41,210 bases of DNA, from IMG/VR virus record IMGVR_UViG_2700989400_000003. The stretch is one strand, 5' to 3'. This DNA is from a virus. Taxonomy: Duplodnaviria; Heunggongvirae; Uroviricota; Caudoviricetes. The position numbers are program-made. Every line of letters begins with the position of its first letter. Position 1 is the stretch's first letter. This document shows positions 30,001 to 33,000 of the stretch, piece after piece.

Positions 30001-33000
30001 TCTTCCTGTGTTGCCGCTTCCTGTACTGGTAACGCAACACCGGCTGGCTGAGGAAAGCCTTTACCAGGTGTTTTAACTACCGATACAACTTTCGGCTCTG
30101 CTGGTAAATTACCGTCCGGCAGGCAGTAACGAAATTTACCGTTCTGATTTACGCGAATCAGACGACCTTTGCTGATGGCCATAGCCAGCGATGAGTTCAC
30201 CCTGCGGGAAGTAATTCTGAATATCAGTGCAAGTTCATCAGCCGCTTTAGGGCCATGCTGTTCAATCGCCTCGATCAGCATTTGCGCTGTCACTTTAGAA
30301 GCCTGTGCCGCAGATGCGTTTTCGTCGGTTTGAGTCAACCACCACATCGGGCCCTTGTTATCAGCTTCCCCGCGACGCTTCAGTTTCCACAGCTCGTTAA
30401 TCGCCTCATCCCGGGTCATTCCCAGACGTGCTGCCACTTCCTGGGAAGAGGCTTTTCCCATTGCTTTCAGTGCGTCAAAAACGGTCTCCATTAAAATTTC
30501 CTCCCGGTAAAAATTACTTCTCAATTCCTGGCTGACCAACATTCGGGCGCCAGCTCTCCCAGTTAAAATTCACCCATCGCCCGCCGTTCATGGTCATCCG
30601 ATCCATAATCCTCTCGCCGAGCAATGTTTTCATGGCCTCATAGTTCAGGTTTGTCAGCATCCCCACGCTGCGGATCGACGCTGTCCGGCGATCAACAATC
30701 TGGTGCAGTACCACCTGCTCGTTTTTTGTCTCGCGCTGAATGCCAATTTCATCAAGAACCAGCAGATCCACTTCGCACAGTTCCCGCAAAAATTTTTCGC
30801 CTGATTGCCCGTCGTCATAGCTGGCGTGTAGAGCACTCATAACATCAGCCACGGTAACCACAATCACTGTCTGACCGTTTTTCAGCAGGCGATTCCCGAT
30901 AGCCGCCGCCAGATGGTTTTTTCCGGTACCAGGTTTTCCGCTAAACGCAAAATTTGTACACCCGACCATCAGTTCATCGGCGATGGATTTCGCCTGGCTC
31001 AACGCGTATCGCTGGCCGTCGTTCTGCACCTGGTAATTCGAAAACGAGCATTTGCGGTGCAACGGCTGGATGCCGGAGCGATTCAGAATTTTTTCCACCC
31101 GCAACTGACGATTCTGGCGATTGATCTCCTCGCAACGTTTCTGGCCTTCTGCAAGTTGCCACTCGCGCCACTCCGCCACCGTCCTGAATGGCGCGGTTAC
31201 ATGTGGCGGGGCCAGTCTGCGGATACGTTCCAGAACGCCGCCTGTCGCAATATTTTTCATGGTCAGTTACCCCCTGAAGCCTGGCGGGATCGCACTGTCC
31301 GGAAACGAGACAGTGTTAACCTGTCGGAGCAACGTCTCAGGCCGAACACTTTTCGGCGCGAACAAGCCCTGGTATTCATTGGCGATGCTGTGTCGAATCA
31401 CCTGCTCAGGGGTAAAACCCTGCTGGCGGAATTTTTCCAGTTCCCGTATCGCCCCGTTAGCGCCCTGCTCCGTTCGAATCGGTTTTCGCAATGCCTGCCT
31501 GAACTGGACCCACTCATTCCAGAGTGTTTCTGGCAACCAGTCGGGCAGAGCAATGGCCTCCGGCTCGAATTGTTTAGACGCTCGTTTTTGCCGAGGGGGA
31601 TTTAGGGGGAGATCAGTATTTATATCTTCCTCTTCCTCTTCCTCTGGTAACGCTTTTTGATCCGTTTGTGTAACGCTGGCAGCGTTACCTTTTCGCTTCA
31701 GTTCGCGTATTTTTGTAACTCTCTCGTTTGTAACCGCCCGTTTTTTCGAGCTTTTTCCGTTATGACGCTCAAAGTTAGGTAGTGAAAGCACTCCATCACT
31801 TTCGACCAGCCATCCAACCTGAATTAACGCATCAGCAAAACCAGCCATAAAAGTGATACGGTCTATTGCACTTTTTGTAACGCCTCGAGCGTTACACTCT
31901 GCGTTACCATCAATCATTTGTTGATCCGCCCATGCCCAGAATCGAATGACCTTCCCTAATGCGGCATCTGGATCAATATTAAGAATCTCAGCAATCCTGA
32001 ATATTTCCGGTTTATCCGGCGTAATAACTTCGAGCTTTATCCAGTTTGAAGCCATATTGTTTTCACCTTGTAACGCTCGCAGCGTTACATTTAACTGATA
32101 CCGAACAAAACGCTCCGGCACGATTAATTTCAATCAATGCACTACGACAGAATCGCCGGATGATCCGCCGTGGCTGAAATGCGCTTTCCGGTAAACGGCC
32201 TGAACTGCATCATCATGCGCATCAATTGCCGTATTCAGCGCTTCCTGAGCCGCCAGTAATGCGCGACGTTCCAGGGTGTCAAAAACGCTGAGGCGGTGTC
32301 GCAGTTCGCGCGGAAGAATTGCCAGGATTGCAGGAATCAGCTTCTGGATTTTTTCCCTTTGCGCCTTTGTTTCACCTTTTAACCAGCGGTGATAGATGTT
32401 TTGCTGATTGTTCCAGTCCTTGCCTGGCGCCAGGGCTAATTCACTCTCCCCCTGGCGCAAATATTCTTCAGTAATTGCGTTGGCAACCCACGCCTGACCT
32501 TTTTCGGCAGCCAGAGCTAACAACACTGATTCAATGTGCTCATGCCTGATTTTCATGAATACCCTTACCCGCCCGCTTTGCCTTACGATATTCGTCATAA
32601 ACCTTGGGATCGTACTGAAGCTCTCCGCCAGATGCCTCTTGCAGACGCATCGCGCGACCTTCTGGGACCAGCTCCCCCCATGCAGCAATACTTGCCAGCC
32701 TTACTCCTGCGGCACTGGCAAGCTTTGTCTTGCTACCAAAAAAAATAATTGCATCAACTTTAAACATCAAAGCCCCCTTTGTTAGATATTCCTAACACTA
32801 ATGTGCGCGGGATACCTAAGTCAAGAAAAATTAGAATTACCTAACTATGGATACAAAAACACTAGGCCAGCGAGCTCTGGCAAGACGAAAAGAATTACGC
32901 CTGACACAACGAGAAGTCGCACGTCTCGCTGGGGTTGCTCACGTCACCATTTCTCAATGGGAAAGAGATGAAACCCAACCTGTAGGGAAGCGACTGTTTG

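Follow-up and report, generated by a model that had tools for sequence, protein, structure and literature searches.

Repeated palindromes in and beside the initiator gene of a Rac-like prophage as probable binding sites of a lambda-type replication origin

Introduction

Why would the gene for a replication initiator carry repeated copies of a single palindrome? The question is raised by IMG/VR record IMGVR_UViG_2700989400_000003, a stretch of 41,210 nucleotides (nt) of tailed-phage DNA (referred to here as the window), in which three such copies lie in, or just upstream of, a gene for a putative initiator protein of 262 amino acids (aa). The region lies in a Rac-like lambdoid prophage of Escherichia coli, with 99.9% identity to strain Ceylon31. 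An earlier note on this DNA described the palindromes and offered two readings of them, as origin or initiator-binding sites, or as operators of the neighboring YdaT/Cro-like regulators.

The first reading has a well-known model in phage lambda, whose origin lies inside initiator gene O and consists of four 18-base pair (bp) inverted repeats of hyphenated form, with adenines between them, and then an unwinding region of 39 bp with a high AT content (PMC6022878). Based on a comparison of homologous loci, we consider it likely that the palindromes of the window are dimer sites of the prophage's own initiator and that, with a half-site, a polypurine tract and an AT-rich block, they make up an origin of the lambda type inside the initiator gene.

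Results

Three identical palindromes in the initiator region

The sequence GTAACGC-N5-GCGTTAC occurs in three perfect copies, at 31670-88, 31877-95 and 32070-88. A search of the 41-kb window that allowed two mismatches returned exactly these three sites, all with 0 mismatches and with none elsewhere, against 0.07 expected from shuffles. These are the palindromes recorded in the earlier note, now seen to have one architecture, and the enrichment near the initiator for which it had proposed a motif count is evident. Its arm lengths of 8-9 bp and centers of 1-5 bp are correct for each site (9 bp/1 bp at site 1, 8 bp/5 bp at site 2 and 9 bp/3 bp at site 3), its spacing of about 200 bp corresponds to start-to-start distances of 207 and 193 bp, and two of the sites do lie in the initiator coding sequence (31267-32055, minus strand), with the third upstream of the ATG in the 78-bp gap between this gene and ydaT. 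The elements of the locus, and the protein domains encoded around them, are as follows:

31670-31688, no strand: linker palindrome (site 1), GTAACGCTGGCAGCGTTAC, codons 123-129 (G123-N-A-A-S-V-T129), proposed origin-proximal initiator box
31876-31896, no strand: N-domain-coding palindrome (site 2), TGTAACGCCTCGAGCGTTACA, codons 54-60 (C54-N-A-R-G-V-T60), proposed distal initiator box
32069-32089, no strand: upstream palindrome (site 3), TGTAACGCTCGCAGCGTTACA, non-coding, -34 to -14 from the ATG, proposed auxiliary initiator box, possibly with an autoregulatory role
31901-31907, no strand: half-site GCGTTAC (GTAACGC on the gene strand), 12 bp upstream of site 2 in gene orientation
31647-31653, no strand: half-site GTAACGC (GCGTTAC on the gene strand), 23 bp downstream of the linker palindrome and abutting the polypurine tract
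31712-31735, no strand: two degenerate TTGTAAC half-site-like motifs (31713-19 and 31729-35), seen in the sequence, of uncertain membership in the origin
31625-31645, minus strand: polypurine tract of 21 nt, AGAGGAAGAGGAAGAGGAAGA on the coding strand, encoding PEEEEEED, proposed unwinding/helicase-entry part
31610-31624, no strand: AT-rich block, AGATCAGTATTTATA, containing GATC, proposed DNA-unwinding element
31690-32055, minus strand: N-terminal domain (N-domain), about aa 1-122, predicted winged-helix-like and DNA-binding
aa 123-149, minus strand: linker of the initiator
aa 139-262, minus strand: DnaT/YdaU-like C-terminal domain (C-domain)

The heptamer GTAACGC occurs 14 times in the window (3.4 expected), and eight of these copies fall inside 31647-32088. 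As for the half-sites that the earlier note mentioned nearby, GTAACGC at 31647-53 is real, the TTGTAAC copies are partial rather than exact matches, and GCGTTAC at 31901-07 had not been listed; the extra half-site, polypurine tract and AT-rich block at 31610-31653 had been missed. Relative to TL-2011b-type genes, the window clade has its own 12-bp (ECNA) insertion (31896-31910, codons 50-57), which duplicates the left arm and yields both the half-site at 31901-07 and a new full site. The protein loop predicted at the insertion has low model confidence.

Recurrence of the palindromes in homologous loci

Homologous loci were oriented on the initiator start and scanned for palindromes without prior assumptions. 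A scan of viral contigs with the single protein gave just 96-100% relatives, and genome contigs were searched with a four-sequence alignment. Two exact palindromes with the same arms are present within -60 to +480 in 98 of 138 unique loci, compared with 0 in codon-position-preserving shuffles, and they recur at about +150 (or +65) and about +350-385 of the gene. The arms fall into these classes:

GTAACGC-N5-GCGTTAC, at about +148-166 and +336-385: TL-2011b, Klebsiella phage, Xanthomonas CP2, many Pseudomonas, Akkermansia and Planctomycete prophages
GTCCGC-N7-GCGGAC, at +65 and +344-406: epsilon15-type phages, phiPSA1
GTAGACG-N6-CGTCTAC, at +153 and +369: Ralstonia phage Raharianne
GTCAC(GC), at about +148 and/or +331-384: loci L421, L442, L446 and L177, Vibrio 1.211.A
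GTGACGC, at +148 and +355: locus L427

No site is shared more widely in the family than the linker site (+336 to +406). Most TAACGC-class loci have a counterpart of site 2 at +147 to +166, and counterparts of site 3 are found in Serratia (-43) and Yersinia (-39) and are absent from TL-2011b, epsilon15 and others. Distances between sites range over 189-231 bp in one class; in another they are 279-342 bp. Half-sites flank the full sites at 11-12 bp in epsilon15, TL-2011b and Raharianne (11-23 bp overall), and the complete genomes of these three phages have full sites solely inside the initiator gene. The reverse test gave the same association, as 107 of the 120 IMG/VR stretches with the exact 21-mer TGTAACGC-N5-GCGTTACA had it within, or adjacent to, a homolog of the N-domain and at canonical offsets.

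What surrounds the sites varies. The gene upstream is ydaT in the window, a cytosine methylase in epsilon15 and the Vibrio phage, a KilAC antirepressor in VW-6S, and small unrelated open reading frames (ORFs) in Raharianne and elsewhere; the C-domains and the downstream loader or helicase genes also vary between loci. The N-domain that contains the sites is their sole constant companion.

This distribution bears on the other reading in the earlier note, that the palindromes are operators of the YdaT (CII-like), DicC/Cro-like or DicA-like regulators. The genes for these regulators are close by, one site is in the ydaT-initiator intergenic region, and a weak YdaT-operator-like match with two mismatches, ACGATTAATTTCAATCAA, is present at 32120-32137. 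However, identical or analogous sites are found in phages that have no adjacent ydaT, dicA or dicC (epsilon15, the Vibrio phage, VW-6S and Raharianne), and relatives in the window clade with a different immunity module retain the sites. The published YdaT operator, TTGATT-N6-AATCAA (PMC9986795), differs from the palindromes, and the YdaT footprints in K-12 Rac are found at the promoter of ydaS and where ydaT begins (PMC11879457). Because of the site distribution and the published operator sequence we rejected regulator operators as an explanation and regard them as extremely improbable. The YdaT-like match at 32120-32137 itself overlaps the stop codon of ydaT, and 30 bp separate it from palindrome 3.

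Palindromic sites of 16-21 bp are also typical of ParB-type and repressor proteins, and the sites might bind a protein other than the initiator (for partition at a centromere, for packaging, or a host factor) and simply hitch-hike with the initiator gene. Against this, C-domains and flanking genes come and go around the sites and only the N-domain always accompanies them, changes in specificity follow N-domain residues (see below), and the hosts extend from E. coli to Akkermansia and Planctomycetes, a breadth that argues against one host factor. We consider another protein decidedly unlikely.

Conservation of the arms and co-variation with the initiator

The arms are conserved as DNA. Among 70 unique DNAs of the epsilon15 clade, the arms of the +65 site are invariant at 12/12 positions and the spacer varies, compared with an average of 0.99 bit and 6% invariance at other third-codon positions (p=7e-4). 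Across 81 close relatives of the window, one mismatch is the only change in the arms of the three sites, and each site has 4-6 spacer variants; at site 3, arms are intact in 80 of the 81 and there are five spacer variants. Spacer length is fixed in each class and spacer sequence is free, and the copies within one genome share their arms. Such a pattern of arms and spacers looks like the signature of a dimeric DNA-binding protein.

These data leave little room for the view that the palindromes arose by chance or because a repeated G-N-A-x-x-V-T peptide had to be encoded. In favor of such a constraint, both intragenic sites of the window share a frame and encode x-N-A-x-x-V-T. However, the third copy is non-coding, and in TL-2011b and the Klebsiella phage one site encodes G-N-A-G-S-V-T and the other, in another frame, V-T-P-T-A-L. 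Synonymous arm positions are frozen, and with an arm of GTCACGC or GTGACGC the encoded G-N-A becomes G-H-A or G-D-A, with the linker site changing likewise. Since the peptide change from N to H or D follows the arm change from A to C or G, it is the DNA element that dictates the peptide. With the non-coding copy, the change of frame, the frozen synonymous positions and the shuffles (0.07 expected in the window, 0 in the 138 loci), we view chance or coding as refuted and give it practically no weight.

The same alignments bear on a hairpin role, in which the palindromes would fold in mRNA or single-stranded DNA (as attenuators, priming signals or RNase III sites, for example) instead of being bound by protein as duplex DNA. 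A stem of 7-9 bp is possible at each site, and site 1 is terminator-like on the antisense strand. Yet the arms are the same in all copies of a genome, there are no compensatory or G-U changes in the 70 unique sequences, spacer length does not change within a class, and non-palindromic half-sites stand about one turn from the full sites. The 1-nt center of site 1 is also too short for a loop unless the stem opens. Hairpins are, in our estimation, very unlikely.

Binding by the initiator is favored by the way in which the sites change. Site class tracks the clusters of the N-domain, and both sites of a gene change together. Among the alignment columns, that of window position 109 shares the most mutual information with site class, and position 113 is similar:

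TAACG class: position 109 T in 56/59, position 113 V in 59/59
TCCGC class: position 109 D/E in 43/43, position 113 K in 43/43
TAGAC class: position 109 K in 3/3, position 113 Q in 3/3
TCACG class: position 109 A/G/S in 5/5, position 113 K/Q in 5/5

Residues K104, R106 and R112 are invariant across all site classes and flank positions 109 and 113 in a predicted basic helix (aa 103-122). Because positions 109 and 113 track site class and these three residues are invariant, the alignment points to the basic helix as a recognition element.

L427 and L442 are contigs of one metagenome-assembled genome (Rhodanobacteraceae SMAG_U1148) and encode paralogous initiators whose sites differ by one base in each arm (GTGACGC vs. 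GTCACGC), as expected if co-resident prophages diverge in origin specificity.

The polypurine tract and AT-rich block

In nearly all loci the linker palindrome is followed downstream by an A-run, a half-site, a polypurine tract and, often, an AT-rich block. The extra half-site is the clade's own right arm: GCGTTAC in the window, GCGGAC in epsilon15 and GCGTGAC in L177. Across the family the tract is near-invariant, being CAGAGAAGAGAAGAGAAGAGAAGA, or (AGAGGA)n in the E. coli clade. In the window it is the longest purine/pyrimidine run apart from one 19-mer, and an equivalent tract was found in 64 of 65 unique viral loci, being the longest such run of the locus in 64 of the 65. It is read in three frames (REEKRRE, EKRREEK and RREEKR; PEEEEE in the window) and 143 of its 143 Arg codons are AGA, compared with 11% elsewhere; the three reading frames and the AGA-only Arg codons indicate that the tract is conserved as DNA. 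Among the 20-mers of the ydaV-ydaT module, the AT-rich block has the lowest stability; at 30-40 nt it ranks second. Linker palindrome, half-site, tract and AT-rich block all lie at codons 123-149, between the N-domain and the C-domain.

Taken with the association of the sites with the N-domain, with which they travel and change, their position beside this polypurine/AT-rich element gives strong comparative support to the origin and initiator-binding reading of the earlier note.

GATC (Dam) sites at 31611-31614 and 31659-31662 flank the half-site and tract of the window, and a GATC lies at most 30 nt from the tract end in 24 of 64 TAACGC-class and 16 of 43 GTCCGC-class loci. No DnaA box was found in the origin region of the window, and a DnaA-dependent mechanism is accordingly unsupported there. 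A perfect DnaA box (TGTGGATAA) is present downstream of the tract in 15 of 43 unique epsilon15-class loci vs. 1 of 64 TAACGC-class loci; in the epsilon15 class (e.g., L007, and L249 at about 35620-35640) these boxes are about 60-160 nt downstream of the tract.

The position of site 3, 13 nt from the initiator ATG and directly preceding the Shine-Dalgarno sequence AAGGTGA, speaks for a further alternative, namely that the palindromes are purely autoregulatory operators of the initiator-ydaV operon, at which the initiator or another phage protein would repress or attenuate transcription, and that the origin is elsewhere. Many plasmid initiators autoregulate through inverted repeats of their iteron sequence. 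However, the upstream site is confined to one clade and the family-wide sites are deep in coding sequence, and the most shared of them abuts a half-site and a DNA-conserved polypurine tract, which an operator role does not explain. Furthermore, no sigma-70 promoter-like site was detected in 31200-33000, which leaves a promoter-overlap mechanism for site 3 unsupported. We think purely autoregulatory sites improbable.

The initiator protein

The earlier note called the initiator gene YdaU-like. This holds for the C-terminal 124 aa, as the BLASTP alignment with K-12 YdaU is confined to aa 139-262 (78% identity over 124 aa), but not for the N-terminal ~138 aa, where the domain with the sites is unrelated to YdaU and its DUF1376 domain. 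The C-domain also has weak matches to DnaT (PDB 2ru8, E 4.9e-4; NCBIfam, E 0.0045). The whole protein matches PHROG 2509, "replication initiation protein" (E 1.6e-89, residues 1-262 vs. 1-277 of the 277 profile positions), an annotation that is computational.

Sequence searches of Pfam, NCBIfam and PDB returned no family for the N-domain. It had no match to Phage_rep_O (PF04492) in Pfam even at E<=10, compared with 5.7e-36 for lambda O itself, and comparison with lambda O gave no significant BLASTP match and an hhalign probability of 0.7%. Similarly, there was no match to DUF1376 (PF07120), for which K-12 YdaU scores 2.7e-26, and hhalign against the N-domain of K-12 YdaU gave a probability of 0.1%. 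The family of the N-domain is nonetheless large, with 6357 clusters at 50% identity (E<=1e-3) and no Pfam model, and its members come from phages and prophages of E. coli, Salmonella (epsilon15), Klebsiella, Xanthomonas, Pseudomonas, Ralstonia, Vibrio, Akkermansia, Planctomycetes and others. A structural model of moderate confidence suggests a resemblance to winged-helix DNA binders.

Residues 115-132 of lambda O (L252), WCIPQNEGKSPKTRDKTS, just before the ori-coding linker, resemble the family motif LSLPNFERHNGKSxKxRA (consensus 86-106); the position is analogous, and the hhalign score is not significant (E 0.086, probability <1%).

Genomic setting

The initiator gene belongs to the following gene order, which on the minus strand also includes DUF1627 and DUF977 genes:

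32847-33254, plus strand: dicA-like repressor
32540-32770, minus strand: dicC/cro-like gene
32134-32556, minus strand: ydaT-like gene
31267-32055, minus strand: initiator gene, 262 aa
30514-31260, minus strand: ydaV, DnaC-like helicase loader, directly 3' of the initiator gene (NCBIfam PRK12377, E 4.6e-152; DnaC, E 6e-91; Pfam IstB_IS21, Bac_DnaA)

YdaV is the presumed partner of the C-domain of the initiator. The immunity module (32540-33254) is DicA/DicC-like, as in Qin (NCBIfam PRK09706, 6.7e-66; PRK09744, 1e-45), and K-12 Rac has RacR/YdaS instead. A 2.8-kb query (30500-33300) was covered to at least 80% at one place in just 12 of 5426 complete E. coli genomes, indicating mosaicism. About 3.7 kb away from the origin region there is an ORF of 883 aa on the plus strand (35749-38400), whose C-terminal part we take to resemble RecE (exonuclease VIII), which would fit a Rac-like element.

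Discussion

A possible mechanism of initiation

If the palindromes are initiator sites, the origin core would span 31610-31688, with auxiliary boxes about 200 and 400 bp upstream. The N-domain would recognize the 19-bp hyphenated palindrome GTAACGC-N5-GCGTTAC through its basic helix, and initiator molecules occupying the linker cluster (31647-31688) and the distal boxes (31876-31907 and 32069-32089) would form a higher-order complex that destabilizes the adjoining polypurine/AT-rich DNA. The C-domain would then recruit DnaC-like YdaV and host DnaB to the destabilized DNA. Every one of these steps, from protein binding through unwinding to helicase loading, is our inference, and so is the part played by the distal boxes. 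These boxes might act in looping or wrapping, and site 3, being near the ribosome-binding site, might serve autoregulation by letting the initiator sense or limit its own expression.

Several observations weigh against an origin of this kind. Lambda has four tandem iterons in about 85 bp, whereas here there are two or three clusters of two to four half-sites over 210-420 bp, one of them upstream of the gene. A tandem array of about four close iterons is thus not what we see, the sites being 193-207 bp apart in the window and 189-342 bp apart in the family. Nor do inter-site distances have a fixed helical phase, since they vary in steps of three. An AT-rich block follows the tract in just ~40% of family loci. 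The window has a second AT-rich stretch of low stability at 31966-32005, between palindromes 2 and 3. At a length of 30-40 nt no other stretch of the replication module is less stable, and unwinding could occur there instead or as well; because of it, the exact point of unwinding is uncertain. The co-variation of residues and sites is confounded by phylogeny, and the prophage of the window may be defective, so its origin might not fire in this strain. Finally, the literature searched, a scope that left out most subscription journals, has no prior description of these sites, and no report of this initiator binding them or of replication starting here. The richly annotated RefSeq record of epsilon15 marks neither an origin nor the palindromes.

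Relationship to known origins

The resemblance to lambda is in layout. In lambda O/ori, as in phi80, 82 and P22 (gene 18), the origin is in the stretch that codes for the linker between a DNA-binding N-domain and a loader-recruiting C-domain, as it would be in the window. Both have hyphenated inverted repeats of 18-19 bp with A-runs, followed by a purine-rich and AT-rich unwinding region; the purine-rich coding strand of lambda ori reads ACAAAAGAAAAAAGAAAAGATTATT. The two differ in their components. The lambda N-domain is Phage_rep_O, to which the window N-domain is non-homologous, and the lambda partner is lambda P and not a DnaC-like protein. Next to the sites there is a near-invariant (AGAGA)n or (AGAGGA)n repeat that is conserved at the nucleotide level across phyla, and not simply AT-rich DNA. 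What sets the window apart from lambda is the non-homologous N-domain, the two or three dispersed clusters with a shifting distal box, and the polypurine repeat, and on account of these three differences we would treat the origin as a variant and not as another member of the lambda type.

Lambdoid origins are modular, with the specific part (N-domain and sites) exchanged between phages on a generic part. K-12 Rac, with YdaU-YdaV and oriJ, provides an example. Its initiator gene has the same position as that of the window (between ydaT and ydaV), the C-domains are those that are 78% identical, the AT-rich block and CCCCCTAAATCCCCC are common to the linker DNA of both, and both have repeats in the linker-coding region. 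In contrast, K-12 YdaU has a DUF1376 N-domain (E 2.7e-26) and repeats of TGTTCAAACA, both of which the window protein lacks. The two genes become homologous again at the AT-rich block (31610-31624), which is the module junction. Judging from this alignment, the difference between K-12 and the window is a lambdoid exchange of a specific module on a generic one.

The origin oriJ is described as an active origin of Rac (PMC3945230; Potrykus et al., 2000, as cited in PMC11014345). As the K-12 N-domain and repeats differ, what is known of oriJ does not transfer to the palindromes of the window. In the linker region of K-12 ydaU (L001 2610-2740, NZ_CP062247.1) there are three copies of the repeat TGTTCAAACA/TGTTTGAACA and a TGTCAACACA-like copy, beside the AT-rich block and CCCCCTAAATCCCCC. 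These repeats are probably the oriJ boxes for a DUF1376-type N-domain.

Precedents for an origin inside a gene and for split origins exist outside the lambdoid phages. The initiator G38P of Bacillus phage SPP1 binds repeats within its own gene at oriL, and the alpha protein of satellite phage P4 needs a second, distant cluster of sites (crr) in cis besides ori. These proteins belong to unrelated families, their repeats are direct and not palindromic, and the distances involved (P4 crr, SPP1 oriR) are kilobases compared with 200-300 bp. A looser analogy can be drawn with bacterial oriC, whose basal unwinding system consists of a DnaA box, DnaA-trios and AT-rich DNA. As in the window, an initiator site (a half-site here) abuts a short-period repeat that is followed by AT-rich DNA; the protein is different (the initiator here has no AAA+ domain), and the period of the repeat is 3 nt vs. 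5-6 nt here.

A bolder proposal, which we put forward tentatively and think rather doubtful as a whole, is that the family shares a previously undescribed, phylum-spanning origin design in which a split origin, a polypurine-repeat element and code-overlapping sites are combined. In such a design, distal boxes 200-300 bp away may be obligatory, having been re-created at non-homologous positions (+65 vs. +150). The (AGAGA)n repeat abutting the half-site may be a sequence-specific unwinding or loading element, recognized by the initiator or forming a triplex, and by analogy the two together may be a functional counterpart of the DnaA-box/DnaA-trio unit and not merely easily melted DNA. A change in specificity may also force amino acid changes in the initiator (N/H/D at codon 51).

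Implications for the initiator family

If the palindromes are initiator sites, an origin and a DNA-recognition code would be assigned to a large initiator family (the 6357 clusters that have no Pfam model) of temperate phages and prophages of Enterobacterales, Pseudomonas, Ralstonia, Xanthomonas, Vibrio, Akkermansia, Planctomycetes and others, including epsilon15-type and Rac-like elements. Origins of this kind could then be annotated by a simple rule, the presence in the gene of two same-arm palindromes of 19-21 bp and an (AGAGA)n tract. The natural specificity variants, with residues 109 and 113 as candidates, would make the recognition code testable, and incompatibility groups for replication would be predicted among co-resident prophages, such as those of the metagenome-assembled genome that has two paralogs with different arms. 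For Rac-like prophages it would mean that the name YdaU covers two unrelated origin/initiator modules. In the family as a whole, it would represent a case in which a DNA element dictates conserved residues of the very protein that binds it.

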